Shown: positions 2,698 through 37,300 of the stretch, one piece after another | Position numbering within the stretch: the stretch's first letter is position 1 | How the letters are laid out: each line of letters opens with the position of its first letter | Assembly (NCBI GenBank): GCA_903925425.1 | Contig: CAIYFD010000313.1 | Span: 1 to 38,406, forward strand | Direction of reading: 5' to 3' | Source of the DNA: an uncultured Opitutia bacterium | GTDB lineage: Bacteria; Verrucomicrobiota; Verrucomicrobiia; Opitutales; Opitutaceae | Length of the DNA stretch: 38,406 nt | Made by a program: the position numbers and the translations under genes | The notes under the pieces: model-generated | Seen by the model: only the letters and a program-made list of their open reading frames with translations | The model's database searches: none | Told to the model about the DNA's origin: nothing

Positions 2698-4842
2698 TCA
2701 GGGATTCGCGAGCTGATTGAGATAGGCGAGGATGGCGTCCCATTGCGCGTGGGCGTCGCCGTCGAGGATTCCGGTTTGGAGGCTGCGCCCGGGTTCTCCG
2801 GTGAAGCGGGGCATCTTGGTCAGGGGGTCGATGCGCTGCGGATTGTCGAGCCAGCGACGGTAATACTCGTCACGGAGCCGGCTGGGAACGAGGGGAAAAT
2901 TAATCCCGGGCGCCCCGAACGGAGCGGCGGCGGGCGTGGGGCCGGCCGCATGGCAGGCCACGCAACCAAAGAACTCAGCGCTGACCAATCGCTCGCCGAC
3001 CGCGGCCAGATCGGGATCAAGTTTCGGAGCGGGCGCGAGGCCCGGCAACAGGCCGTGCTCGAGAGCGAGTCCGTGCGCGATGCCTTCGGCCCTCGTCCCG
3101 AACCCGGGCATTTTTACTTTCAACCACGGCCGGGCTCGCTCGGACACCGTGCCGCTCAGCAGGCGGAGGAGCGCATCGGCCTGAAGTTTTTCCCCGGCCC
3201 ACGTGAGTGACGGGGGATCCTGCGAGAGCGACTGCCCTTCCGCTTCGACCTCGACCGTTCCGGAGCGTTTGCCCAGGGCCAGTGCTTCCTCGGTGAAGGC
3301 GGTGAAGCCCGCAGCTTGGCCGTCGCGATCGTGGCAGGCGTTGCAACGCAGGGCGGTAAAGGTGCGTCGGGCGAACTCGACCGGGGCATCCTGCGCGAGG
3401 GCGCTCACGCCCACCGCGGCGAACGCCCGGAGATGGTCGCGCTGTGTCTCATCGAGCCCGAAATCCGGGGCGGCCCCGCGCGCGGCCGGCGTCGCGCCAA
3501 GGCATCCGGCGGTCCAGTTGCGCTCCAGCAACGCGGTGAACGTGGGACGTGCGGTCGTCCGGCTCAAGTTCACCGGGGAAGGCGCGCCATGGCAGTCATA
3601 GCAGCCGACAGCAGGCGTGTCATAGTATAAGGTCCGTCCGCGACTGGCATCGCCGGCTACCGCGGTCGGCGCAGGATTGGGGCTGGCGAGCAGGAAGGCC
3701 GCAAGCTGCCGCGCGTCGCCGGCGGACAAACGGAAATCCGGCATGCGCGAGGCCGGATAGTTTTTCTGCGGAGCCTGGAGATATTCCGCGAGTGCGGCGG
3801 GCTGCCATTTTGCCGGCACCGCGGCGAGACTCACCCGGCCGGCGGGGGCGGCCGTGCCGGGCGGGGTGTGGCAGGCATTGCAGCGCAGCTCGGCGAAGAG
3901 GCGGCCGCCACCGTTGACCAGCGCGGCCGCGGCCGGCGCGGGCGCTGGGGGCGGCGTGCCCAGCGAAGCGAGGAAGGCCGCGATGTCATTGGCATCTTGG
4001 GGCGAGCCGAGAGGCACGCGCGGCATGCGGGCGTCGGGGCGCTGGGCCTTGGGATCGAGAATCCACGCTGCGATCCAGGATTCGCGAAACCGGGGACCCG
4101 CTTCCGCCAGGGAGGGAGGCTGGTCCTGCAGCTCTGGCACGCCGAGCGGCAGCTGGGCTTCACCGGCGCGGATGGTGCCGGGGGGATTACCGAGATGGCA
4201 CTTGATGCAATTCAGCTCGGCAAAAAGCTCCCGGCCCGCGCGGATGCGGCTGGCCTCGCGCAAGGCAATCCCGGCCGTGTCGGCGGTGAGCACGGCGGGC
4301 GGCACCGGCTCGGCGCCGAATCCCTTGCCTGACCAGATGAGCCGGAAACTCGCGTCCCCGTTTTGCATCGGACTCGTGTATGCGACTTGGATTCGGTTCG
4401 CGCCCTTGTTGAGCACGACGGTGACGGCCGGCTTTGCTCCTAGTGCGGCTCCGGTTTCGGTCAGCACGGCCTGCCCGTTCACGGTGAGCGTCGCGGTGCC
4501 CTGGCCCTCGAAGGCAAAGGCGTACTCGGCCCGCAGGGGAATGGTCAGGCTCGCTTCCCACGTGGCGCGGAACGGCCCGGCGGACAGCAATGAACTCGGC
4601 GGTGTGCCGCCCGGGACCGCGAGCGCGATGAGGCGGTCGCGGCGGACGTCGCTTTTCCCTGTGGCGGTGGAGGTGAAGGTGACGACCACCCCGGGTTCGG
4701 GATGGGCCGCCTCGGTCGCGAGGGGGCGGGGCTGCGGGGCCGCGTGGAGGACGGGGATCCCGGCGCCATGGACGAATGACGTCAGCACGACGGCGACGGC
4801 GAAGAGCCGGGCCCCGGCAATATGTAGTCGGGGTTCCCTCAC
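2698..4842 (-). CDS. Secreted multi-haem c-type cytochrome (five CxxCH motifs)
   Basis: Five CxxCH motifs are read directly: CIKCH, CNACH, CYDCH, CNACH, CVACH. The 958-aa track ORF runs upstream into the neighbouring gene in a different frame. A signal peptide (REPRLHIAGARLFAVAVVLTSFVHGAG) follows an in-frame GTG at 4842. An alternative GTG lies at 4872, so the start is uncertain. Confidence 0.75.
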   Translation of the reverse strand: MREPRLHIAGARLFAVAVVLTSFVHGAGIPVLHAAPQPRPLATEAAHPEPGVVVTFTSTATGKSDVRRDRLIALAVPGGTPPSSLLSAGPFRATWEASLTIPLRAEYAFAFEGQGTATLTVNGQAVLTETGAALGAKPAVTVVLNKGANRIQVAYTSPMQNGDASFRLIWSGKGFGAEPVPPAVLTADTAGIALREASRIRAGRELFAELNCIKCHLGNPPGTIRAGEAQLPLGVPELQDQPPSLAEAGPRFRESWIAAWILDPKAQRPDARMPRVPLGSPQDANDIAAFLASLGTPPPAPAPAAAALVNGGGRLFAELRCNACHTPPGTAAPAGRVSLAAVPAKWQPAALAEYLQAPQKNYPASRMPDFRLSAGDARQLAAFLLASPNPAPTAVAGDASRGRTLYYDTPAVGCYDCHGAPSPVNLSRTTARPTFTALLERNWTAGCLGATPAARGAAPDFGLDETQRDHLRAFAAVGVSALAQDAPVEFARRTFTALRCNACHDRDGQAAGFTAFTEEALALGKRSGTVEVEAEGQSLSQDPPSLTWAGEKLQADALLRLLSGTVSERARPWLKVKMPGFGTRAEGIAHGLALEHGLLPGLAPAPKLDPDLAAVGERLVSAEFFGCVACHAAGPTPAAAPFGAPGINFPLVPSRLRDEYYRRWLDNPQRIDPLTKMPRFTGEPGRSLQTGILDGDAHAQWDAILAYLNQLANP

Positions 4843-10783: not shown

Positions 10784-12136
10784 TCAGGGCCGGTGCAGCG
10801 TGATCACGCACTCAAGGTGGCGGGTCTGCGGGAAGAGATCGAACGGCTGCACTGCGGCGAGCGTGTAGCCGGCGGCGAGGAAGGCCTTGAGGTCGCGCAT
10901 CTGCGTGGCCGGGTCGCACGAGACGTAGACGACGGTGTGCGGGGCGAAGGCAAAGAGCTGGGTGAGGAAGGACTCGTCGCAGCCCTTGCGCGGCGGGTCG
11001 ATGATCACGGCGGTCTCGGCGGCGGGAAACGTCAGCCCGGCGAAGATCGCCGCGGCGTCACCCGCGCGGAATTCGGCGTTGGCGATGCCGTTGGCCGCGG
11101 CATTTTCCCTCGCGAAGCGGACGCTGCTCTCGCTGATCTCGATGCCGGTCACGCGCTCGAATGCCGGCGCGGACGACAGCGCGAAGAGCCCGCTGCCACA
11201 GTAGGCGTCGACGAGGAAACGGGCCGGGCCGGCCGAGGCCTGTACCCGCACATAGCCGGTGAAGGCCGGGAGGATGAAGGGGTTGTTCTGGAAAAAATCG
11301 CGGGCGAGAAAACGGAGCCGGAGCGCCGGTGACGGACTCTGGCTGGCGATCTCCTCGGTGATGATGGCATCGTAGTCGGTCGTGACGCCCTCGGCGGCAT
11401 GGCGGAGGAGCAGGGTGGCATCGCGCTTATAGAATCCCTCGGCGAGTCGCTGCCGGGTTTTGGCGCGCACCTCGGTCAGCTGCGCGTTGATCTCCGGGGT
11501 GGCGATCGGGCACTCCGGGACGTCGACCAGTTCGAAGCGGTTCCCGGCCCGAAGAAACCCGATGGGGGACTCTGGGGTAGTCGCGACCGCATCTGAGATC
11601 TGAGATTTGAGATTTGAAGTTCCCGCATTTTGCCGCGGCGCGGCAAAATGAGGCGTGAGCTTCGACCGGTAGCCGTACTCGCGCGGAGACGCGATGACCG
11701 GGTTCACCGGGAACTCGACGCCCGCCATGTATTTCAACAGTTCGCCGACCTGGCGCTGTTTCCAGAGCAATTGCTCCGCGTAGGCGAGATGCTGGTACTG
11801 GCAGCCACCGCAGCGCCCGAAAAGGCTGCACCGGGCGGCGACCCGCTGGGGCGAGGGGGTGAGCACCGCGATGAGATCGGCCTCGGAGAAATTCTTCTGG
11901 TTGCGGAAAATCCGCACCCGCACCCGTTCGCCGGGCAGGGTGAAAGGGACCATCACAACCCAGCCGCCAGCCGAGGCCGGAGGCTGGCTCGTGGTTTCAG
12001 ACTTCAGATCTGAAATTTGAGACTCCGGCAAGGCCACGCGGCCCAAGCCCGACCCCAGGTTGGTGAGCGTGCTGATCTCCAGCTCGATCTCCTGATGATA
12101 GGCGAACGGATGGTCGTTCAATTTGTTTTTTCCCAC
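10784..12136 (-). CDS. SAM-dependent RNA (uracil-5)-methyltransferase, RlmD/RumA/TrmA family, with TRAM domain and Fe-S cysteine cluster
   Basis: TRAM-like N-terminus (EIELEISTL..GSGLGR...VPFTLPGERVRVRI), a CGGCQYQH cluster, the SAM motif DAYCGSGLFAL, DPPRKG, and C-terminal VYVSCDP...LFPQT.H.E. The start is either GTG 12136 or TTG 12121. The 910-aa track ORF is a shadow extension. The gene contains two in-frame AT-rich heptamer cassettes. Confidence 0.8.
   Translation of the reverse strand: MGKNKLNDHPFAYHQEIELEISTLTNLGSGLGRVALPESQISDLKSETTSQPPASAGGWVVMVPFTLPGERVRVRIFRNQKNFSEADLIAVLTPSPQRVAARCSLFGRCGGCQYQHLAYAEQLLWKQRQVGELLKYMAGVEFPVNPVIASPREYGYRSKLTPHFAAPRQNAGTSNLKSQISDAVATTPESPIGFLRAGNRFELVDVPECPIATPEINAQLTEVRAKTRQRLAEGFYKRDATLLLRHAAEGVTTDYDAIITEEIASQSPSPALRLRFLARDFFQNNPFILPAFTGYVRVQASAGPARFLVDAYCGSGLFALSSAPAFERVTGIEISESSVRFARENAAANGIANAEFRAGDAAAIFAGLTFPAAETAVIIDPPRKGCDESFLTQLFAFAPHTVVYVSCDPATQMRDLKAFLAAGYTLAAVQPFDLFPQTRHLECVITLHRP
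11591..11621. repeat. AT-rich heptanucleotide tandem-repeat cassette A
   Basis: + strand units: atctgag atctgag atttgag atttgaa gtt. On the gene (minus) strand this reads TCAAATC TCAAATC TCAGATC TCAGAT and is translated as TSNLKSQISD inside the methyltransferase. The tract is about one-third G+C in a much more GC-rich background. Confidence 0.9.
11994..12024. repeat. AT-rich heptanucleotide tandem-repeat cassette B (dyad-symmetric)
   Basis: + strand units: gtttcag acttcag atctgaa atttgag act, containing the perfect palindrome ttcagatctgaa. Translated as ESQISDLKSET inside the TRAM domain of the same gene. Confidence 0.9.
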
Positions 12137-12209
12137 GCAACAGACGAAATACACGAAAGCTCCGGAAAAGAAGCGGTTTTCTTTCGTGTCTTTTCGGGGA
12201 TTTCGTGGG
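12132..12209. promoter_or_regulatory. Long imperfect inverted repeat in the divergent promoter region between the two RNA methyltransferase genes
   Basis: The left arm cccacgcaacagacgaaatacacgaaag (12132-12159) mirrors the right arm ctttcgtgtcttttcggggatttcgtggg (12181-12209). The inner 9 bp, acacgaaag/ctttcgtgt, are perfect. CGAAA/TTTCG motifs are repeated on each arm. Confidence 0.45.
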
Positions 12210-12220
12210 CAACGTTGGCT

Positions 12221-13021
12221 GTGCCCCCGGAAAAAATCACCAGCCTCCAGAACCCCCGGGTGAAGGAGTTGGTGCGCCTGCGCGACCGCCGGCCGCGCGA
12301 CGAGGCCGGCCTGTTCCTCGTCGAGGGCTACCGCGAGGTCCGGCGTGCGCTGGAGAAAAAGATCCCGCTGCGGGAGGTGTATTTCGCCCCCGAATGGTTC
12401 CTCGGCGAAAACGAGCGCCCGCTGCTGGAGCAGGCCGCGGCGGCCGGGGCGACGCTCTGCGAGCTTTCCAAGGAGGCCTTCGCCAAGGTCGCCTACCGGG
12501 AGCGTCCCGACGGCCTTCTGGCAGTCGCCCCGCAATGGCACCGGAAACTCGAGGACCTCGTGCTGCCCAAGACGCCCTTTCTGCTCGTCGTCGAGGCGAT
12601 CGAGAAGCCGGGCAACCTCGGCACGATCCTGCGCAGTGCCGACGCCGCCGGCTGCGATGCCGTGATTGTCTGCGATCCGGTCACCGACCTCTTTAATCCC
12701 AACGTGGTCCGGGCTTCCACCGGCGTGCTTTTTTCCGTGCCCTGCGTCGTGGCCGAGAGCACCGCGGTGCACGCCTGGCTCCGCGGAAAGAAGATCCGCA
12801 CGGTGGCGACGACCCCGGCGGCGGAAAAAATCTACTCCGATACCGACCTGCGCGGCCCGCTCGCGGTGGTCATGGGCAGCGAGCAATTCGGACTCAGCAA
12901 GTTCTGGCTGGAGAACGCGGATCTCCCCGTCCGCATCCCGATGGCCGGCCAGGCCGATTCGCTCAATGTCGCGATGGCCACGATCATCACGCTCTTCGAG
13001 GCGGTACGGCAGCGGGGCTGA
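12221..13021 (+). CDS. TrmH/SpoU family RNA 2'-O-methyltransferase
   Basis: Has NPRVKELVRLRD, the SpoU motifs EKPGNLGTILRSADAAG, VMGSEQFGLS and IPM.G.ADSLNVAMA. The start is in-frame GTG 12221 or TTG 12215. The upstream part of the 334-aa track ORF overlaps the divergent gene. Confidence 0.8.
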   Translation: MPPEKITSLQNPRVKELVRLRDRRPRDEAGLFLVEGYREVRRALEKKIPLREVYFAPEWFLGENERPLLEQAAAAGATLCELSKEAFAKVAYRERPDGLLAVAPQWHRKLEDLVLPKTPFLLVVEAIEKPGNLGTILRSADAAGCDAVIVCDPVTDLFNPNVVRASTGVLFSVPCVVAESTAVHAWLRGKKIRTVATTPAAEKIYSDTDLRGPLAVVMGSEQFGLSKFWLENADLPVRIPMAGQADSLNVAMATIITLFEAVRQRG

Positions 13022-13074
13022 TCGGGCCGGCCGGTTTATCCCGGAGCCGCCGTGATGGTGACGACGGTCGAGCC

Positions 13075-13605
13075 CTACCGCGCGGCGCCGCCGTTCCCCG
13101 CCAGACGCTGCACGAGGGCCCGGTAGGGCAACAGGAGCAACAGGGCCATCACGAGCTTGGCCGCGAGGTCGCCCGTGGCGAGCGGCAGCCAGGCCACCGG
13201 GGTGCCGGCGAAGGCGAGGCTGAAGAAGATCGCGGTGTCGATGACCGAGGCGGCGCTCGACCCGAAGAGCGGCGCCTTCCACCAGCTGAGGGTCCGCAGC
13301 CGGTTGAAGACGACAACATCGAGCAGCTGCGAGACGATGAAGGCCGAGCCCGACGCGGCGGCGATGCGCCAGGGCGCGAGCAGCACGGACCAGGCGAGCC
13401 CGACGGCGAATCCCACCCAGGCCACGCGCCGGGCGAGCGCCGGCCCGGTGACGCGGTTGCAGACATCGGTGACAAGATAAGCGACCGGGTAGGAAAAGGC
13501 GCCCCACGTGAGCCACGCGTTCAGCGGGAACTGCACGAGGAGGTTCGAGACCAGCACGATCGCCGCCATGGCGAGGGCCGGGAGGATGATCTGTCGCGGG
13601 TTCAT
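13075..13605 (-). CDS. yhhQ: Queuosine-precursor transporter (YhhQ/VUT, DUF165 family)
   Basis: 176 aa from ATG 13605 (MNPRQIILPALAMAAIVLVSNLLVQFP...). Polytopic hydrophobic protein with YPVAYLVTDV and SQLLDVVVF motifs typical of the family. Its start overlaps the upstream stop codon (ATGA). Confidence 0.7.
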   Translation of the reverse strand: MNPRQIILPALAMAAIVLVSNLLVQFPLNAWLTWGAFSYPVAYLVTDVCNRVTGPALARRVAWVGFAVGLAWSVLLAPWRIAAASGSAFIVSQLLDVVVFNRLRTLSWWKAPLFGSSAASVIDTAIFFSLAFAGTPVAWLPLATGDLAAKLVMALLLLLPYRALVQRLAGNGGAAR

Positions 13606-14609
13606 GCCGGCGGAAGTCCGGGTTGGCGGTGCCAATGGATCAGCTCCGCCGTGCCGGCGGCCATCGAAACGTGAGGCGCGTAGCCCAGATCGCGCCGCGC
13701 CGCGGCGATATCGAACCAGTGGTCCTTGGCGAGCTCGGCCGCGATGAAGCGGGTCATCGGCGGTTCGCCGCGCACCGGCAGCACCCGCCAGGCGGCCTCG
13801 CACAACGCCCCGAAGACACTCGCGGCGCCGAGGGAGATGGTTTTCGTCACGGGCGGAACACCGAGTCCACGGAGGAGTGCGTTGATCCATTCCCAGAGCA
13901 GCACCGGCTCGCCGTTGGTGATGAAGTAGGCTTGGCCGCCGGCCACGGGCCGGGGGCCGGAAAGCGCGCGTTCGGCGAGAAGGTGGGCGGCGACGGCGTT
14001 GTCGATGTGGACCATGTCGACGCGGTTCTGACCGTTGCCGACGATGCGCAGTCGGCCGGCCTTGGCCCGGGCGAGGAGGCGTGGCACGAGATGGGGATCG
14101 CCCACGCCCCAGATCAAATGGGGGCGCAGGGCCACGGTGCGAAGCTCCGGCCCGTGGGCGGCGAGGATCTCGCGCTCGGCGATGGCCTTTGTGAGCGGGT
14201 ACGGACTCGGGCAGTCGCTCGTGAGCGGGAGCGATTCGTTGGCGCCGGCGAGATCGTGGCCGTTGTAGACCACGCTCGGTGTGCTGGTGTAGACGAGCCG
14301 GGCCACGCCGTGCATCCGGCAGCCGGCGAGAATCGCGCGGGTGCCGAGCACGTTGGTCCGGAAGAAATCATCGTAGTCGCCCCAGACGCCGACCTTGGCC
14401 GCGGTGTGGAACACCGTCTCGATCCCGGCGCAGGCGGCCTCCACGGCTGTCGCGTCGCCGAGCGAGGCCTGAATAAAGCGAACACCCCTGGCCTCGAGAT
14501 CGGGTGCGGGGGTGCGGCCGAGCACCGCGACCTGTCGGCCCTCCGCGAGCAGCCGCTCCACCAGTTTCCGGCCGAGGAAACCAGTGCCGCCGGTGACAAG
14601 CACGCTCAT
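13602..14609 (-). CDS. NAD(P)-dependent 3-beta-hydroxysteroid dehydrogenase/epimerase family reductase (OleD-like)
   Basis: 335 aa from ATG 14609. Rossmann motif VTGGTGFLG, then YTSTPSV, YPLTKA (YxxxK) and RP..IWG.GD..LVPRL. ATGA overlaps occur at both ends. Confidence 0.75.
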   Translation of the reverse strand: MSVLVTGGTGFLGRKLVERLLAEGRQVAVLGRTPAPDLEARGVRFIQASLGDATAVEAACAGIETVFHTAAKVGVWGDYDDFFRTNVLGTRAILAGCRMHGVARLVYTSTPSVVYNGHDLAGANESLPLTSDCPSPYPLTKAIAEREILAAHGPELRTVALRPHLIWGVGDPHLVPRLLARAKAGRLRIVGNGQNRVDMVHIDNAVAAHLLAERALSGPRPVAGGQAYFITNGEPVLLWEWINALLRGLGVPPVTKTISLGAASVFGALCEAAWRVLPVRGEPPMTRFIAAELAKDHWFDIAAARRDLGYAPHVSMAAGTAELIHWHRQPGLPPA

Positions 14610-16345
14610 GACGCCGCGTCCTCCGAGAGCGGTTTCGCCGTCGCGGCCCATTTGGCTAGGGTGAGCCGGTGAATCTTGGCGTTGTGGCGGGTGTCCACGG
14701 GAAAAAGCGGATGCACGAAGAACTGACGGATGCCCGCCGTCTGGGGCCGGGATTCGGCCGCTTTTTGCAGCAGGGCGAGGAGCATGACTCGGTCGGTGGT
14801 GAGCGATGATTCCTCCACCACCAGCGCCGGGGTCATGCGGCCCGGAGCACCCAGCCCGATCAGCGCGACGCGCAGGCCGGCGAAAGTGCTGCGAAACACC
14901 TGTTCGCACGGGTCGGTGAAAAGGGTCCCGTCAGCCGTGATCACGCGCTCGGCCTTGCGGCCGCAAAACCAGAGCCGGCCTTCGGGATCGAGCAGGCCGC
15001 AGTCGCCCATGCGGTGCCAGACCTCGGCGCGGGGCGTCGAGGAGGCGGAAGGCGGGAGGTGGGAGGCGGGAGGAGTGGATCTGGCGTCGAAGATTTTCGC
15101 CGCTGCCGTGGCCTCGGGCAGGGCATCGTACTCGCGGGTGACCACCGGCCCACGGACGATGATCTCACCGATCTCGTCGGGCGAAAGCGTCCGGGCCTCG
15201 GTCAGGCGCGCGAGGGGCTCGTCGGAGATCGCGATGATCCGCACCTCGATCCCCGGCAGGGGGCGCCCGACGCAGGTGCCCTGCGGTTGGGCGAGCAGCG
15301 GCAGCGCCTCGGCGGCGGAGATGCTGGCGACGGGCAGCGCCTCGGTGGCGCCGTAAGGGCTGTGCATCTGGCCGGCGGGAAGCCACGCGGTTGAGCTTTG
15401 CCAGAGCGCGGCGGGGACAGGAGCGCCGGCGCAGAGGACCCGGCGGAGTGAGGGCAGGGTGATGCCTTGGTCGCGGCAGTGGGTGCCGATCTTTGTCCAC
15501 AGGGTCGGCGAGCCGAAGGAGTTGGTGACTTTTTCCTGCTGGATGGCCTGCGCGATCTTGGCGGGGTCCACCGTGGCGGGGCGGCTGGGGTCGATCTCCG
15601 GCACGATGGTGGTCATGCCCAGCGCGGGATTGAAGAGGGCGAAGATCGGCAGCATCGGCAGGTCGATCTCGCCGGGCTGGATCCCGTAGGTTTCACGAAT
15701 CAACTGCACCTGCGCCTCGAACATGCCGTGTTCGTAGCAGACCCCCTTGGGTGCGCCGGTGGAGCCACTCGTGAACAGCACGGCGGCGAGGTCCGCGGCC
15801 GTGTTGCTCGCGATTTCAAATTTCAAATTTGAGATTTGAGATTGGGCGGTGAGGCGGGCCGTGAGGGAGCCGCTGACGGGGACGGTGATCTCCACGGAAC
15901 GGAAGGAGCCGCGGAAGAGATGTCGCACGAGGCGGGCCATCGGGATCCCGACGAGGGCGCGGGGGCGGGAGCGGGCGACGCAGGCGAGGAAACTTTTCAG
16001 GCCCATGCCGGGGTCGATGATGATCGGCACCGCGCCCAGCTGGAAGAGGCCGAAGGTGGCCGCGATCAACGGGAGTCCCGGGCGGACCATCACGAGCGTG
16101 CGATCGCCGCGGCGCACGCCGTGCGCCTGCAGCCGCGCGGTCCAGGCGTCGGCCTCGGCGGCGAGTTCGCGGAAACTGAGGCTCAGGTAGTCGATCGCGC
16201 CGGCGGCGGTCCTCCCACGCGGAATCTTGAGCGCGGGCGTGTCCGGCTGGCTCGCCGCCATGAGCCGGAGGTGTCGCGCGATGTTGGCGTCAGCCGGGGT
16301 AGGCACGTCGGGATGGCGGGGGTCCGTGGCGCCCGGCCGGCTCAA
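14606..16345 (-). CDS. AMP-dependent synthetase/ligase (fatty-acid CoA ligase family, OleC-like)
   Basis: 579 aa. Adenylate-forming motif LFTSGSTGAPKG, plus YGATE and a C-terminal region typical of the ANL superfamily. The start is TTG 16345, overlapping the rnd stop as TTGA, or GTG 16306. The gene contains an in-frame heptamer cassette just upstream of the P-loop motif. Confidence 0.8.
   Translation of the reverse strand: MSRPGATDPRHPDVPTPADANIARHLRLMAASQPDTPALKIPRGRTAAGAIDYLSLSFRELAAEADAWTARLQAHGVRRGDRTLVMVRPGLPLIAATFGLFQLGAVPIIIDPGMGLKSFLACVARSRPRALVGIPMARLVRHLFRGSFRSVEITVPVSGSLTARLTAQSQISNLKFEIASNTAADLAAVLFTSGSTGAPKGVCYEHGMFEAQVQLIRETYGIQPGEIDLPMLPIFALFNPALGMTTIVPEIDPSRPATVDPAKIAQAIQQEKVTNSFGSPTLWTKIGTHCRDQGITLPSLRRVLCAGAPVPAALWQSSTAWLPAGQMHSPYGATEALPVASISAAEALPLLAQPQGTCVGRPLPGIEVRIIAISDEPLARLTEARTLSPDEIGEIIVRGPVVTREYDALPEATAAAKIFDARSTPPASHLPPSASSTPRAEVWHRMGDCGLLDPEGRLWFCGRKAERVITADGTLFTDPCEQVFRSTFAGLRVALIGLGAPGRMTPALVVEESSLTTDRVMLLALLQKAAESRPQTAGIRQFFVHPLFPVDTRHNAKIHRLTLAKWAATAKPLSEDAAS
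15812..15843. repeat. AT-rich heptanucleotide tandem-repeat cassette C (dyad-symmetric)
   Basis: + strand units: gatttca aatttca aatttga gatttga gatt. Translated on the minus strand as QSQISNLKFEIAS. G+C is about 22% by direct count (7 of 32 nt). Confidence 0.9.
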
Positions 16346-22486: not shown

Positions 22487-22780
22487 TCAGGCCCGGCGCG
22501 ATTCGGTCCGCGGAGGCACCGGCACGCGCTCCACGAGGATGTTCATGGCCGCCGAGTGATTGAGAGCGATCCGGGTGCCGTTCACCTGGCAAAGGCTGGT
22601 GGTCGTGCCCGAGATTTTGGTGATCAAGGCCGCTTCGCCGCAGCCCATCTCACGGAGCCGCTGGCAAAACCCCTCGTCGCCGGTGATGGCCTGAACACGA
22701 CCGACGGCACCAGCGGGAAGCTGGCAGAGCGGCAGGCGGGCGATGGGTGAGGGCGCGGGCACGTGGTGAACAGGATCCAC
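22487..22780 (-). CDS. feoA: FeoA family protein (first copy)
   Basis: 97 aa with a GTG start. Has LCQLPAGAVGRVQAI.GDEGFCQRLREMGCGEAALITKI. Confidence 0.75.
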   Translation of the reverse strand: MDPVHHVPAPSPIARLPLCQLPAGAVGRVQAITGDEGFCQRLREMGCGEAALITKISGTTTSLCQVNGTRIALNHSAAMNILVERVPVPPRTESRRA

Positions 22781-22794
22781 TTGAGACTAAGTTT

Positions 22795-22814
22795 CAATGT
22801 CAATAAGCATACAT
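22795..22814. promoter_or_regulatory. AT-rich patch upstream of feoA with weak Fur-box-like character
   Basis: caatgtcaataagcatacat is the only AT-rich stretch in the feoA/GH28 divergent region. It matches roughly 10 of 16 positions of the AATGATAATCATTATC core by eye. The minus strand also carries a TTGACA hexamer. Confidence 0.25.
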
Positions 22815-23035
22815 AAGGTCTTGTCGATGTGAGGCTGAGCGAGTTTGCCGCGGCCGCAGGGGGAGGTGGTCGCGGGTTTTCCAAACCCGGAGCGGCCTGC
22901 CGTCAGGCCAGGCGAGCACTCTGCTGGACGGCAACGTCGGCTAAACGGTAAAGCGATCCCTTGCTTGCAGAAGCCCCGGTCGCAGACGCACATTGAGGCG
23001 CAATTCAACCCCCCCGGCCGTTCCGGGTTTACCCC

Positions 23036-25051
23036 ATGAAACTCCCCTCCTTGCGCCAGCTTTGCTGCGTCTTCGTGTTTGCGGGTGTCGCCGCCCATCC
23101 GACCCGGGCCGCCGAACCCGCGGCAACTGTTTATAATGTTCGTGCTTTCGGCGCGACCGGCGATGGCAAGACGATCGATTCCAGTGCCATCAACCGTGCG
23201 ATCGACGCCGCGGCGGCCGCGGGCGGCGGACAGGTCCTGCTCCCGCCGGGAAATTACCTGAGCTACACCATCCGCCTGAAGAGCAACATCGACCTGCACC
23301 TCGAGCGCGGCGCGACCCTCATCGCCGCCGACCAGCCGGCCGCGGGCCAGCCCGGCTACGATCCGCACGAGCCCAACCGTTTCAGCGATCTCGTCTATCA
23401 GGACTTCGGCCACGGCCATTGGCAGAACAGCCTCATCTGGGGCGAGAACCTCGACCACATTTCCATCACGGGCATGGGCACCATCTGGGGTCGGGGCCTG
23501 CTCCGGAACGGCGGTGAGACCCAGGGCCAGGGCAACAAGTCCATCGCGCTCAAGCTCTGCAAGAACGTCGACCTCCGCGATTTCTCCGTGCTGCAGGGCG
23601 GCTGGTTCGTGCTCCTCGCCACCGGCGTGGACAACATGACGATCAGCAACATCAAGGTGGACACCAACCGCGACGGCTTCGACATCGACTGCTGCCGCAA
23701 CGTGCGGATCTCCGATTGCACGATCAACTCGCCGCTCGATGACGCCATCGTCCTGAAGAGTTCCTACGGTCTCGGCTATGCGCGCTCCACCGACAACGTC
23801 ACGATCACGGGATGCCAGGTCAGCGGCTACACGATGGGCACCTTCTTCGACGGCACCTACCAAGTCCCGGCCAACGGCGGCGGCACCGGCCGCATCAAGT
23901 TCGGCACCGAGTCGAACGGCGGTTTCCGCAATATCACGATCTCGAATTGCATCCTCGTTTACTGCAACGGCCTCGCGATCGAGAGCGTCGACGGCGCGAT
24001 CATCGAGGACGTGACGATCAGCAACATCGCGATGGAGCACATCTCCAACCCGCCGATCTTCGTGCGCCTCGGCGCGCGTATGCGCGGACCCGAGGGTATT
24101 CCGGTCGGCGTCATCCGCCGGCTCAACATCAACAACGTGGTCGTCGGCTACGGCGCGTCGCGCGCCGCCTCCATCATCAGCGGGATTCCCGGCCACCCGG
24201 TCGAGGACATCAGCCTGAGCAACATCCGCATCCTCTACACCGGGGGCGACGGCCCGGCCGGTGTTGTCCTGCCGAATGCCTCCGCGGAACAGACCGCCGC
24301 GGCCAACCTGCTGGCCATTGAAACCGTTGCCCTGCGCACCGCGGTCGCCAACGCGCGCAATGCCCTGACCGCGGCCTCGCTGTCCGCTCCCAATGACAAG
24401 GCCGGTCTCACCGCGAAGGCCCAGACTCTTGCCGCGGCGGACCAGGCGCTGGCCGCGGCGCGCGCGGTTGGTTTTGCCAAGCTCCAGGGGGCGGCCAACA
24501 AATTGAACGCCGAGCAGAAGACCGCGTTGGTCGCGGCCAATGGCAGTCCGGCCGCCGCGCCGCCCGCGGCCGGCGGCGCCGGCCGCACCGGCGGGCGTGG
24601 CACCGGGTTGCCCGCAGCGGGCTCGGACCCGTTCGGCGTCCCGGAACTCGAGGATGTTTATCCCGAGCCGACAATGTTCGGAAATCTTCCGGCGTACGGC
24701 CTTTACCTGCGCCACGTGCGCGACCTGTCGATGGACCACGTCGACCTCAGCCTCACCAAGAGCGAATACCGTCCGCCCATCATGATGTACGATGTCACCG
24801 GTGCGCATTTCGAGCACATGCGCGTGCAGGCGGCCGCCGGTGTCCCGGTCTTCATGCTCAACAAGGTCACGGATTTCTCGACCGAGAAGTTCACGGGCCT
24901 CGCTGATCTGCACCGCGACAAGGTCGACCATGAATCCATTTTCGGCACCGGCCTGCCCGCCCCGGGTTCCACGTACAAAGTTGCCGCTCCCGCCGAGAAT
25001 GTGCCCGAGAGCGCGAATATTCCGATCCGGCCCTCGCCGCGTCCGCTTTGA
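23036..25051 (+). CDS. Secreted glycoside hydrolase family 28 / pectate-lyase-fold protein with an inserted Ala-rich module
   Basis: 671 aa. A signal peptide is followed by YNVRAFGATGDGKTIDSSAINRAIDAA and beta-helix repeats (NRDGFDIDCCRNV, SPLDDAIVLKS, GRIKFGTES). An insertion of about 125 aa (roughly residues 406-532) precedes the VPELEDVYPEP segment. Confidence 0.8.
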   Translation: MKLPSLRQLCCVFVFAGVAAHPTRAAEPAATVYNVRAFGATGDGKTIDSSAINRAIDAAAAAGGGQVLLPPGNYLSYTIRLKSNIDLHLERGATLIAADQPAAGQPGYDPHEPNRFSDLVYQDFGHGHWQNSLIWGENLDHISITGMGTIWGRGLLRNGGETQGQGNKSIALKLCKNVDLRDFSVLQGGWFVLLATGVDNMTISNIKVDTNRDGFDIDCCRNVRISDCTINSPLDDAIVLKSSYGLGYARSTDNVTITGCQVSGYTMGTFFDGTYQVPANGGGTGRIKFGTESNGGFRNITISNCILVYCNGLAIESVDGAIIEDVTISNIAMEHISNPPIFVRLGARMRGPEGIPVGVIRRLNINNVVVGYGASRAASIISGIPGHPVEDISLSNIRILYTGGDGPAGVVLPNASAEQTAAANLLAIETVALRTAVANARNALTAASLSAPNDKAGLTAKAQTLAAADQALAAARAVGFAKLQGAANKLNAEQKTALVAANGSPAAAPPAAGGAGRTGGRGTGLPAAGSDPFGVPELEDVYPEPTMFGNLPAYGLYLRHVRDLSMDHVDLSLTKSEYRPPIMMYDVTGAHFEHMRVQAAAGVPVFMLNKVTDFSTEKFTGLADLHRDKVDHESIFGTGLPAPGSTYKVAAPAENVPESANIPIRPSPRPL

Positions 25052-25064
25052 TTTTCGTTTCACC

Positions 25065-25985
25065 ATGAATCATCCGCTGTCCCGCCGCAGTTTTCTCGCG
25101 CTGACCGGTTCCGCGCTGCCCTTGGCGTTGGCCGCCCCGTCAATTTTACGCGCCGCGGCGGCGGAGGCTGCGCCGGCCCCGGCTTCCGTTCCGATGGGCA
25201 AAAAATATCCCATCGGACTCGAGCTGTATTCCGTGCGCGGCGCCCTGATGAGCGACCTGCCCGGCACCGTCCGGCAGGTGGCGAAGCTGGGTTATGAGGC
25301 CGTGGAATTCTATGCGCCCTACTTCAGCTGGAATTTCGCGCAGGCGAAGGACGTGCGTTCGTTGCTCGATGACCTCGGCATGCGCTGCTACTCGACGCAC
25401 AACAACTTCAACGCGTTCACGACCGGCTTCGACAAGGCCGTCGAGCTGAACCAAATCCTCGGCACGCGTTACGTCGTGCTGGCGAGCGCCCCGAACACGG
25501 CCCGCGGACTCGAGGGCTGGAAGCAACTCTGCGGCCAACTCACTGAGGCGACGACCAAGCTTCAGACGCACGGCCTGACGGCGGGCTTCCACAATCACCA
25601 GACCGAGTGGGCCGCGCTCGATGGCGACCAGCGCATCATGGACGTGCTCGCCGCGAACACGCCGAAGGAGTTCATGCTCCAGTTCGACGTCGGCACCTGC
25701 ATGGAAGCCGGCGCCGATCCGCTCGCGTGGATCAAGGCCAACCCCGGCCGCATCCGCAGCCTCCACCTCAAGGACTGGGCGCCTGGTGCCGCCAAGGATG
25801 AGAAAGGCTACCGGACTCTTTTCGGCGAAGGCGTCTCACCCTGGAAGGAGATCTGCGCCGCCGCCGAGGACTCCGGCGGAGTGGAGTACTATCTCATGGA
25901 GCAGGAAGGCAGCCGCTTCTCTGAATTCGAAACGGCCGAGCGCGGCCTGGCCTCGTGGAAGAAATTCCGGGCCGGCAAGGCCTAG
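25065..25985 (+). CDS. Tat-exported sugar phosphate isomerase/epimerase (xylose-isomerase-like TIM barrel)
   Basis: 306 aa from the internal ATG at 25065. Twin-arginine leader MNHPLSRRSFLALTG, then LELYSVR, GYEAVEF, HNH and HLKD motifs typical of AP-endonuclease-2/TIM-barrel proteins. Confidence 0.8.
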   Translation: MNHPLSRRSFLALTGSALPLALAAPSILRAAAAEAAPAPASVPMGKKYPIGLELYSVRGALMSDLPGTVRQVAKLGYEAVEFYAPYFSWNFAQAKDVRSLLDDLGMRCYSTHNNFNAFTTGFDKAVELNQILGTRYVVLASAPNTARGLEGWKQLCGQLTEATTKLQTHGLTAGFHNHQTEWAALDGDQRIMDVLAANTPKEFMLQFDVGTCMEAGADPLAWIKANPGRIRSLHLKDWAPGAAKDEKGYRTLFGEGVSPWKEICAAAEDSGGVEYYLMEQEGSRFSEFETAERGLASWKKFRAGKA

Positions 25986-33924: not shown

Positions 33925-34191
33925 TCAGGCCTTCTTTTCGTAAACGCGAAAAAGCTCCGTCACCAGCACGCCGTTGATCTTCATGCCGGCGAGATTGCAG
34001 TTCTCGAACTCGACGTTGGTGAGATTGATGTCGCTGAACTTCGTGTCGCTGAGGTTGACGTCGGCAAACAGGGACTCCGCCAGGTTCACATCCGTGAACT
34101 GCGCCTCGTGCAGGTCGACGTTGGTGAACTGCGAGCCCGACAGGTACGTGTTTGTGGCGATGAGGGTTTCGCTGGTATTGGTGAGGTGCAT
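33925..34191 (-). CDS. Pentapeptide-repeat protein
   Basis: 88 aa. Consecutive A(D/N)LxX-type pentapeptides are visible (SQFTNVDLHEAQFTDVNLAESLFADVNLSDTKFSDINLTNVEFENCNL). G+C is visibly lower than in the neighbouring genes. Confidence 0.8.
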   Translation of the reverse strand: MHLTNTSETLIATNTYLSGSQFTNVDLHEAQFTDVNLAESLFADVNLSDTKFSDINLTNVEFENCNLAGMKINGVLVTELFRVYEKKA

Positions 34192-34350: not shown

Positions 34351-37300
34351 CTAAGCCTTCAACTGCCGCTCGCGGAGCCAGGCGAAGATCACCGGGGTCA
34401 CGATTAGGATGTGGACGAGCGAGGAGAGCATGCCGCCGACGACGGGGGCGGCGAGAGGGCGCATGACTTCCACGCCGGTGCGGGTGCTCCAGAAGATCGG
34501 GAGCAGGCCGGCGACGGCGGTGGCGACGGTCATGACCTTCGGGCGGAGGCGGAGGCGGGCGCCTTCGCGGATCGCGAGGAGCAGCTCCTCGCGATCCAGT
34601 TGAAGGTTGGAAGTTGAAAGTTGAAGGTCGGGTGAAAGCGCGGCGCGCTTGGCAGCGAGACGCCGTTTTACGGCGTCTTCCAAATACACGACCATCACCA
34701 CGCCGGTCTGGATGGCGGTGCCAAAGAGCGCGATGTAGCCGACCCAGACGGCCACGCTGAAGTTGTAGCCGAGCAAACCCTGCAGGATCACGCCGCCGGT
34801 CAGGGCGAAAGGCACGGCGAGAATCACGTGCGCGGCCTCGGCGGCGGAGTGGAACGTGAAGCAGAGGATCAGGAAGATGATGACCAGCACCGCCGGCATG
34901 ATCAGCTGCAGCGTGGCGCGGGCGCGGAGCTGGTTCTCGTACTGGCCGGAGTATTCGAGCGTCATGCCGGGATCGAGTTTGACCTCCTTGGTGACGGCGG
35001 CGCGGACGTCCTCCACGAAACCGCCGAGGTCGCGTCCGGTCACGTTGGCCTGCACGTAGGCGCGGAGCCGGCCGTTCTCGCTCGCGATCTCGTTCGGCCC
35101 GAGCACGCGCTTGATCGTGGCGACCTGCTGCAGGGGAACGTAGGCGCCCGACGGCAGCGGGACCGGGATGGCGCCGAGGCGGTCGATGTCCTCGCGGTCC
35201 GACTTTTCGAGGCGGACCTGCACCGGCCAGCGCTCACGGCCCTGGATCGTGGTCGTGGCGGTGCGCCCGCCGAGGCCGGTCTCGGCGATGGCAAGCACAT
35301 CGGCCGCGCTGAGTCCGAAGCGGGTGAGGGCGGCGCGGTCGACGGAGATCTCGAGATAGGGCTTGCCCTGTACGCGGGAGGGCGAGACGCCCGCGGCGCC
35401 GGGGATCTTGCTGACGACCGCCTCGATCTCGAAGGCCTTGCGCTGAATGGCATCGAGGTCGTCGCCAAAGATCTTCAGTCCGAGCTGGGCGCGGATGCCG
35501 GTGGAGAGCATCAGTACGCGGTTCTCGATCGGCTGGAGGAAACCCGCGGCATAGCCGGGCACCTGGGTGAGTTTTTCCGAGAGGTCGGTAATCAGCATCT
35601 CCTGGGTCATTCCGGGCCGCCACGCGGAGGCCGGCTTGAGCGTGATGGTGGTCTCGATCATCTCTGCCGGCGCAGGATCGGTGGCGGTGTCGAACCGGCC
35701 GAGTTTGCCGGCGACGGACGCGACCTCGGGGGTGGCGGCGATGACCTTGTCCTGCCAGGCCATGATGCGCTTGATCTCGGTAAGCGAGGTGCTCGGCACC
35801 AGCACCGGCATGAAGAGCAGGCTGCCCTCCTGCAGGGTCGGCATGAATTCGGAGCCGAACCCGCCGACGAGGCGTCCGGCGGAAGGCGGGAGGCGGGAGG
35901 CGATGGAGCGCGGCAGCCCGAAGGCGAGCAGGGCGCAGGCGGCGAGCAGCGTGGCGGCGCAGCCGAGGACCGTTTTGCGGTGCTCCAGCGCCCAGTTCAG
36001 GACCGGGTCGTAGATCGCGAGGAGGAAACGCATCAGCCAGTTGCGGTCTTCGGAGTGGAACGGGCCGCGCACGAGATAAGTGCAGAGCACAGGCACGAGC
36101 GTCACGGCGAGCACCGTGGCACCGAGCATCGCGAAGCTCTTGGTCCAGGCCAGCGGATGGAAGAGCTTTCCCTCCTGCCCGGTCAGCGTGAACACCGGCA
36201 CGAAGGCCAGAATGATGATCGCCATCGCGAGGAAGATGGGCCGGCCGACCTGCTGTGAGGCCTCGAGCGTGACCTGCCATGTTTCGGCGGACGTGAGGCG
36301 TGAGCCCTTGGCCTTCTCGGCGAGCTCGCAGTGCCGGATGACATTCTCGGTCATCACGATCGCGGCGTCCACCAGCACGCCAATGGCAATGGCGATGCCG
36401 GTCAGCGACATGATGTGCGACTGGATGCCGAATTCCTTCATCAGGATGAACGCGATCAGGATCGAGGCGGGCAGCGGCAGCGTGACGATCAGGATGCTGC
36501 GGAAGTGAAAGAGAAACAGGACGTGCATCAGCGTCACGAGGATGACGGCTTCCCAAAGCGTGTGCTTGAGCGTGTCGATCGCGCGGCCGATCAGGTCGCT
36601 GCGGTCGTAGAACGGCTCGATCGTCACCCCGGGCGGCAGGCCCGGCGCGATCTGCGCGATCTTGGCCTTCACGTCCTGGATCACCTGCCAGGCGTTCTCG
36701 CCCGACCGCATCACGACCGTGCCACCGACCACCTCGTGCCCGTCGACATCGAGCGCACCGCGGCGGTAGTCGCCGCCGATCTGCACCGTGGCCACGTCGG
36801 TGAGCCGAATCGGCACGCCCTGGCGGACGTCGAGCGCGATGCTTTCGAGATCCGCGGCCGACTTGATCAGGCCGACGCCACGGACGATGAACTCCATGCC
36901 GTTTTCCTCAAGGGTGCGGCCGCCGACGTTGAGATTGTTGCGGGCGATCGTCTCCAGCACGCGGTCGAGCGTGAGCCCGAGCGCGCGGAGTTTGACCGAC
37001 GAGACCTCGACCTGCCACTGGCGCACGAACCCGCCGATGCCGGCGACCTCGGCCACGCCCGGGACGGACGCGAGTTGGAAGCGGATGAAATAATCCTGCA
37101 GCGCGCGGAGGGATCCGAGGTCCTGTTTCCCGGAGGTGTCCTTGAGATGGTACTGATAAACCCAGCCCAGCCCGGTGGCGTCGGGCCCGAGGCGCGGGGT
37201 GACCCCGGCCGGGAGGAGGTTACCGAGGTAGTTCAGCCGCTCGAGGACGCGGGTGCGGGCGAAGTAATTGTCGATCTTGTCGTCGAAGATCACCGTGAGC

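Follow-up and report, generated by a model that had tools for sequence, protein, structure and literature searches.

Ogata et al. reportedly described, in 2000, Rickettsia palindromic elements (RPEs), which lie in frame within protein-coding genes. An RPE is a discrete element of ~100–150 bp with a conserved full-length sequence and a clear presence or absence at the insertion site. Phase-variable contingency loci in Haemophilus and Neisseria carry tetra- to heptanucleotide repeats. In most bacterial genomes, no class of long simple-sequence repeats (LSSRs) is more abundant than that of the heptanucleotides, and polymerase-linked slippage was proposed for this abundance, according to the accounts of Mrazek et al. 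(2007) given in PMC4679880 and PMC4692102. Other heptamer families comprise the cyanobacterial STRR family, GGGNATC in Xanthomonas and Nostoc, which prefers four units, TAACTGA in Beggiatoaceae, and TTTTGAA arrays close to start codons in Nostoc. In Geobacter metallireducens, multicopy elements of four tandem heptanucleotides were reported (GGACCGG, 49 copies; also MTYCTGA x 5) (PMC2700814). No paper on heptamer arrays in Verrucomicrobia or Opitutaceae was found. Here, we analyzed an AT-rich heptanucleotide array inside a fatty-acid CoA ligase gene on a stretch of 38,406 nucleotides (contig CAIYFD010000313.1, hereafter the window) from an uncultured Opitutia bacterium of the Opitutaceae. The gene and the array are located as follows.

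14606..16345, minus strand: fatty-acid CoA ligase family protein, OleC-like and AMP-binding (Pfam PF00501; NCBIfam NF006754).
15812..15843, minus strand: AT-rich heptanucleotide array, sense AATCTCA AATCTCA AATTTGA AATTTGA AATC, encoding SQISNLKFEI, residues 169–178 of a 579-codon open reading frame (ORF).

On the plus strand the array reads GATTTCAAATTTCAAATTTGAGATTTGAGATT, with 7 of its 32 nucleotides being G or C (21.9%). It is the most AT-rich 30-mer island of the window, where the background is 64–72% G+C throughout. Tandem Repeats Finder returned a period of 7, 4.6 copies and 88% matches, and at least three head-to-tail 7-nt units are present. Under one fixed criterion, three period-7 tracts were detected in the window and none at periods 5, 6, and 8–11. 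The degenerate two-unit pattern RATTTSARATTTSA matched the window 9 times, compared with 0.02 matches expected from dinucleotide-preserving shuffles. The tract is a genuine, non-random heptanucleotide array and one copy of a dispersed family. On the minus strand it reads RLTAQSQISNLKFEIASNT and is translated in frame as QSQISNLKFEI (context SLTARLTAQSQISNLKFEIASNTAADLAAVLFTSGSTGAPKG), and each of the other two sense frames across it runs into TGA. Ten codons separate it from the P-loop, LFTSGSTGAPKG. An earlier note on this DNA had described a heptamer tract of 22% G+C just upstream of the codons for the adenylation P-loop, translated in the only open frame, and this description was confirmed.

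The structural context of the tract was assessed in an AlphaFold2 model of the ligase, which was built from a 40-sequence alignment and reached a mean predicted local distance difference test (pLDDT) score of 76.9 and a predicted template modeling (pTM) score of 0.76. Residues 169–171 and 173–201, which span the tract and the following P-loop, had pLDDT values <50 and no secondary structure, in line with the loop location expected earlier. The best solved homologue, feruloyl-CoA synthetase 8wev, aligned across the tract stretch only with gaps. According to the model, the connector between the N-terminal subdomain and the P-loop strand is disordered and variable, and it is this connector that the tract encodes. 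Its peptide probably serves only as a spacer and would have no dedicated function.

Orthologous ligases (loci are denoted by L numbers) carry arrays at the same loop. Their loop peptides are periodic at seven residues (SQISNLKSQI, SKIENPKSKI, SQPSTLNSQP, SQLSALSSQL, and others), which points to translated 7-nt repeats, because three units of 7 nt correspond to seven codons. A translated perfect, stop-free heptamer repeat was matched at ≥8 of 10 residues by 66 of 121 loops, compared with 6 of 605 control segments of equal length from the same proteins. The units deduced from the loops were diverse (AAATCTC, AACTCTC, AAAATCG, AAAATCC, AAATCGG, AAATCAG, AACTTTC, AGCTCTC, and others). In the DNA of the orthologue contigs, the arrays stand in identical codon register, with units that differ by lineage, as in the following four loops.

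Window ligase loop: CAA TCT CAA ATC TCA AAT TTG AAA TTT GAA ATC, units AATCTCA/AATTTGA.
L001 ligase loop: GCA ATT TCA AAT TTC AAA TTT CAA ATC, unit AATTTCA.
L003 ligase loop: TCT CAA CTT TCA ACT TTC AAC TTT CAA CCG, unit TTTCAAC.
L002 ligase loop: CAA TCC AAA ATC GAG AAT CCA AAA TCG AAA ATC, unit AATCSAA.

GC-rich units were found at the same loop in L126 (GCCCATC), L192 (GCTCTCG), and L281 (CCGCAAT). Compared with L001, L003 has A changed to C in every unit, and the window has T changed to C in the first two units and C changed to G in the last two. Judged from these alignments, the sharing of substitutions by neighboring units is concerted evolution within the array.

The units are also shared between separate loci of one genome. 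At least six arrays were found in the window, all within three genes, which encode the ligase, a methyltransferase identified as RlmD via TIGR00479, and a CusA/CzcA-type RND pump. Besides the tract at 15812–15843, these are the following.

11591..11621, minus strand: array in the second RlmD loop, sense TCAAATC TCAAATC TCAGATC TCAGATG, encoding SNLKSQIS; same family as 15812–15843.
11995..12024, minus strand: array in the RlmD TRAM-domain loop, encoding SQISDLKSE; same family as 15812–15843, partly dyad-symmetric.
15041..15073, minus strand: GC-rich array in the second variable loop of the ligase, GGAGGCG x 4.7, sense CCTCCCG, encoding TPPASHLPPSASS; pLDDT <50 at residues 428–437.
34598..34627, minus strand: related array near the C terminus of the CusA/CzcA-type RND transporter, sense CTTCAAC TTTCAAC TTCCAAC CTTCAAC, encoding DLQLSTSNLQL.
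35878..35902, minus strand: GC-rich array in the RND transporter, GGCGGGA x 3.6, same unit family as 15041–15073.

Several dispersed copies of the same genome thus have a unit in common, namely a TCAAATC-type unit at 11591, 11995, and 15812 and a GGCGGGA-type unit at 15041 and 35878; the presence of the same repeat family in the methyltransferase ~4 kb away had been noticed before. The GC-rich family GGAGGCG/GGCGGGA at 15041–15073 and 35878–35902 encodes Pro/Ser/Ala-rich peptides. The fixed-criterion scan returned 2–3 period-7 tracts per locus and none at periods 5, 6, 8, 10, and 11. By a hand count based on the gene calls of seven orthologous loci and the ORFs of the window, about three quarters of the placed tracts lie inside coding sequence.

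Unit sharing was tested with 84 tracts from 31 loci, for which the locus labels were permuted 2000 times. The consensus units of tracts >300 nt apart were within one mismatch in 17.3% of within-locus pairs, compared with 6.4% of between-locus pairs, and this comparison is conservative because the between-locus class includes orthologous pairs. None of the 2000 permutations reached the observed sharing, a result that is not a clean probability because the loci are related to one another. In the window and in L001, all three loops, that of the ligase and the two of RlmD, carry the TCAAATC-type unit. L003 has a TCAAC(T/C)T unit at two RlmD sites as well as in the ligase and the reductase. An AAAATCG unit is found in ligase and RlmD of both L205 and L002, and GCCCATC in both ligase and RlmD of L126. 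As a prediction test, L281 and L280 were picked, where the loop peptides implied rare units. In L281, the rare unit CCGCAAT of the ligase loop was found again inside RlmD. In L280, the ligase loop has AGCGTT(C/G), and so does an intergenic array that lies 1.7 kb upstream. At the level of the compared units, the sharing within genomes indicates concerted evolution across loci.

At other loops, some orthologues have heptamer-bearing segments and others lack them. The 11591–11621 segment was missing from 4 of 8 aligned RlmD orthologues, and the second ligase loop, between AAKI and VWHRM (~15020–15090 in the window), ranges from ~3 to ~45 residues. This presence and absence in RlmD and in ligase loop 2 means that array DNA can add loop sequence there, though none was added at 15812–15843. 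Among the loci examined, many loop 2 inserts are heptamer-derived (L210, L002, L206, and L207). Some are inverted array pairs that fold into hairpins and are translated in frame (L002: 90 nt, −36.8 kcal/mol).

We consider it rather likely that the ligase tract is a dispersed heptamer array in a disordered loop, homogenized by slippage and inter-array conversion, with a neutral spacer peptide and coincidental flanks (see below). Dispersed arrays, usually of about four units, are common in this Opitutaceae lineage, and the ligase copy sits in a loop that is tolerant of sequence change. A 7-nt unit passes through all three codon phases, so that an array can survive inside a gene only if its sense strand is free of stops. 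The two TGA-type units of the window are locked into the sole frame that reads TTG AAA / TTT GAA. Within an array, slipped-strand mispairing with mismatch correction may homogenize the units; between arrays, short-patch ectopic conversion or template switching may do so as a form of molecular drive. Selection on loop length would keep the array near 30 nt, and selection for an open frame would limit what survives in genes. Local slippage by itself would not account for the pattern, which leaves conversion, molecular drive, or a trans-acting factor as possible mechanisms.

Several points weigh against this account. Conversion between arrays is a process that we infer and did not observe. In L146, L204, and L280, ligase and RlmD carry different units, the RlmD loop of L280 having AAAATCG. 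The length of the ligase loop changes in steps of 1–4 residues and not in the 7-residue steps expected from three-unit (21-nt) slippage, which was rejected on these grounds; simple slippage therefore leaves no visible footprint. Finally, an identity over 40 nt between the window and L210, together with the A/T-ending codons of the tract, could reflect selection on the nucleotide sequence, i.e. a function.

Such a function is the core of the main alternative, in which the tract is a functional DNA or RNA cis-element and the arrays of a genome co-evolve by tracking the specificity of a trans-acting factor. The element might be an array of sites for a heptamer-specific protein that binds single or double strands, a pause site, an AU-rich site of processing or decay, or a hairpin on the antisense strand. 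We regard this alternative as unlikely; what weight it has comes from the sharing of units across loci and from a tract that is perfectly conserved in L210. L210 and the window are 77.7% identical in amino acid sequence and 77% identical in gene DNA, with a codon identity at identical residues of 0.64, and the tract is 100% conserved at the nucleotide level, inside a 40-nt identical run that is the longest in the gene. This run is the strongest hint of what may be nucleotide-level constraint or recent homogenization. The A/T-ending codons of the tract are rare ones that have been kept against the 67% G+C of the genome. A unit common to unlinked loci of one genome is likewise in keeping with a cis-element, as are the regulatory roles that have been proposed for the intergenic heptamer arrays of Nostoc and Beggiatoaceae. 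The dyad symmetry pointed out in the earlier note is genuine, and RNA of the plus strand, antisense to the ligase gene, reaches −18.5 kcal/mol (z = −4.7), compared with only −8.4 kcal/mol (z = −2.1) for the mRNA strand, because G-U pairs give way there to C-A mismatches.

However, the units at the ligase loop span 14% to >70% G+C among orthologues, and ~45% of the close orthologues and most of the distant ones have no periodicity at all. The hairpin is missing from L001 and other pure tandem versions. No promoter-like or terminator-like site, Rfam family, or tRNA was found at the tract, and no candidate trans-acting factor was identified. Three specific candidates were rejected. For a conserved hairpin at the ligase loop, a good fold exists only in the version of the window and L210 and on the antisense strand, the pure tandem version of L001 being without a fold. 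A −1 frameshift slippery site (A_AAT_TTG), spotted by eye, was dropped, as orthologues such as L002 have no such site. A rare-codon pause as a general role is contradicted by the orthologues with GC-rich units (L126, L192, and L281). In the distant orthologue L166, the ligase loop (2206–2273) contains two inverted GC-rich arrays, (CGGAAAC)3 and (CTCCGGT)3, 22 nt apart. As in the window, the antisense strand pairs better there, with G-U pairs in place of A-C mismatches.

A wider proposal would be that the heptamer arrays of Opitutaceae, and perhaps of many phyla, form a genome-wide homogenized and possibly mobile family, in which a few active units per lineage are written or converted into unlinked sites, including disordered loops. 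We hold this to be doubtful. If true, it would amount to an RPE-like phenomenon in free-living bacteria and would imply either dedicated heptamer-specific trans-acting machinery or an undescribed conversion pathway. It would also provide a general route for proteins to gain and remodel loop segments.

Selection on the peptide itself appears improbable. (TCAAATC)n translates to a heptad in which the hydrophobic residues follow a 3-and-4 spacing, so that SQISNLK, with I and L at a/d positions, might form an amphipathic heptad that aids ligase function. However, unrelated peptides stand at the same place in orthologues (SKIENPKSKI, SQPSTLNSQP, and PQSPIRNPQS), AlphaFold predicts no helix, and the tract covers only ~1.4 heptads.

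The earlier note had proposed that a discrete ~53-bp element was inserted in frame and duplicated a 7-bp target, GGCCGTG, as an element of the miniature inverted-repeat transposable element (MITE) or RPE type would do. The two copies of GGCCGTG are located as follows.

15797..15803, plus strand: left GGCCGTG, sense CACGGCC, arising from the codons for Thr-Ala in NTAAD; its recurrence is due to chance, not to a target-site duplication.
15857..15863, plus strand: right GGCCGTG, sense CACGGCC, arising from the codons for Thr-Ala in SLTARL; its recurrence is due to chance, not to a target-site duplication.

The copies and their 60-bp spacing around the tract were confirmed, yet they are no more frequent than expected by chance. 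The window contains 22 occurrences of GGCCGTG or its complement, and in a simulation 6% of random window positions had a flanking direct repeat of at least 7 bp within 25 nt of a 32-nt segment. The apparent duplication arises because the codon pair ACG GCC (Thr-Ala) occurs twice in GC-rich coding DNA. The remaining heptamer tracts of the window have flank matches of just 4–5 bp, which is the commonest random value. The orthologue L210 has an identical 33-nt tract, which is flanked by CTCACCGCC and AGCGCGGCG with CACGGCC on neither side. Thus, a target-site duplication is ruled out by the simulation, by the other copies, and by L210, and the GGCCGTG flanks are coincidental.

The ~20 extra residues that an insertion would have added were not found either. 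In the query, the invariant positions R164 and A187 are spaced by 24 residues, compared with a mode of 24–25 and a range of 20–30 in 121 sequences including the query, and this distribution rules out a 20-residue in-frame insertion. The segment at the tract position is present in all 120 best orthologues (58–99% identity), and distant orthologues (46–68% identity) without heptamer periodicity have a similar loop length. Array copies differ in unit number, unit sequence, and boundaries, and have no discrete ends or terminal inverted repeats. Judging from the orthologues, the array is not a recent insertion, because the loop is of ordinary length and the same codons hold arrays in orthologues throughout the family. 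The earlier note had itself named a lack of length difference and a lack of flanks at other copies as outcomes that would speak against its proposal, and both were observed. Although the RlmD loops and ligase loop 2 show that array-containing DNA can come and go in frame, we consider a discrete insertion at 15812–15843 very improbable, and a mobile cassette with a target-site duplication in the ligase is removed as a false lead.

A phase-variation switch, in which the gain or loss of one unit shifts the frame and turns the ligase off or on, would fit a unit that is not a multiple of three in an array inside an ORF, and heptanucleotide switches of this kind are known in Haemophilus, but it is highly implausible here, as the array is a short, imperfect one of 4.6 units, the genes that host such arrays (RlmD, RND pump, and ligase) are of housekeeping types, the tract is identical in L208 and L209, two independent contigs ~99% identical to the window, and the ORF across the loop is uninterrupted in 90 of 90 orthologous loci with DNA, with no frameshifted alleles among the consensus alleles that the assemblies represent.

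The ligase was further classified by family scores. It scored 643.7 bits against NCBIfam NF006754 (fatty acid CoA ligase family protein; cut-off 478) and lay below the cut-offs of both OleC equivalog families, NF045786 (505.3 compared with 900) and NF045785 (455.7 compared with 850). "OleC-like" is a fair label for the ligase, whose equivalog scores do not place it in OleC proper. The true start is probably the ATG near 16261, because near-identical gene calls (e.g. P0001) are 551 amino acids long. The closest ligase homologues carry the names Opitutaceae, Opitutus, or Cephaloticoccus, all Verrucomicrobiota. An RNase D-like gene lies upstream of the ligase, and an OleD-like reductase, with a score of 402 below the cut-off of 580, lies directly downstream. 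The block RNase D-like gene, ligase, reductase, (Vut_1), SpoU methylase (opposite strand), and RlmD was syntenic in every long orthologous contig fetched, and it offers a tractable comparative system for testing mechanisms. Within this block, the 910-codon minus-strand ORF at 10784–13516 is over-extended. In orthologues, RlmD has ~420–480 amino acids, with a start near 12200. On the plus strand, within 12017–13021, a SpoU-type methylase gene is transcribed divergently.

Further repeats were observed outside these loops. A palindromic (GTGACAA)n/(TTGTCAC)n pair is located at or just past the 3′ end of the ligase in L002 (11753–11837), L126 (11261–11285), L140 (4310–4335), and L280 (11693–11773), and could act as a hairpin between the ligase and reductase genes. 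In L206, a long intergenic (ATAAATC/AAAAATC)n array at 3635–3691 abuts the ATG of a PfkB-family gene, similar to the start-codon-proximal heptamer arrays reported in Nostoc and Beggiatoaceae. Two other features of the window are of a different kind. A pentapeptide-repeat protein (MHLTNTSETLIATNTYLSGSQFTNVDLHEAQFTDVNLAESLFADVNLSDTKFSDINL...) at 33928–34191 on the minus strand accounts for a repeat with a 15-nt period at 34012–34063, which does not belong to the heptamer family. A 51-nt island of 27% G+C at 22775–22825, at the 3′ end of the minus-strand ORF 22787–25066, has no repeat structure.

The breadth of the phenomenon was examined in other genomes. (TCAAATC)3 was found in >120 loci of a species-representative genome collection, in Verrucomicrobiota, Planctomycetota, Acidobacteriota, Cyanobacteria, Bacteroidota, and other phyla. 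Across 860 kb of sequence surrounding heptamer matches in many phyla, 325 tracts of period 7 were counted, and no other period from 4 to 12 exceeded 15 (>20 to 1). A special status of TCAAATC is not claimed, as viral contigs contained 34 TCAAATC matches compared with 27 and 8 for composition-matched control heptamers. Because the control heptamers are about as common, the general phenomenon is heptamer arrays of many kinds, not TCAAATC in particular. Heptanucleotide arrays are the most over-represented long simple repeats of bacteria, and the published cases are mostly intergenic. The features worth following here are the in-frame occupancy of disordered enzyme loops, the persistence of arrays at the same codons across a family, and the turnover of units across loci.

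Compared with the known systems, the ligase array shares with contingency loci a unit length that is not a multiple of three and a position inside an ORF, but it differs in having no length polymorphism or frameshifted alleles among the loci compared, in its short, imperfect array, and in its housekeeping host genes. The likeness to RPEs lies in repeated, partly palindromic, in-frame DNA that encodes surface segments of conserved proteins in several host genes per genome. In contrast to RPEs, the tract consists of ~32 bp of simple heptamers with no defined ends and adds no length to the ligase loop. The elements of G. metallireducens resemble the arrays described here in having four to five units per element, but they have other units and belong to another phylum; the Geobacter paper contains no analysis of in-frame translation, loop location, positional conservation in orthologues, or unit turnover across loci (PMC2700814). 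The published LSSR heptamers likewise have head-to-tail 7-nt units, usually about four per array, many dispersed copies in a genome, an excess that is specific to period 7, and a preference for large, GC-rich, free-living genomes (PMC4679880, PMC4692102). Unlike those families, which are mostly intergenic and under-represented in coding DNA, the majority of the tracts placed here lie inside genes and are translated in frame. The main unit here also differs in being AT-rich in a 67% G+C genome, and therefore cannot form a G-quadruplex. Heptamer arrays within genes have already been described in Geobacter and cyanobacteria, and the ligase array joins this known, poorly understood class.

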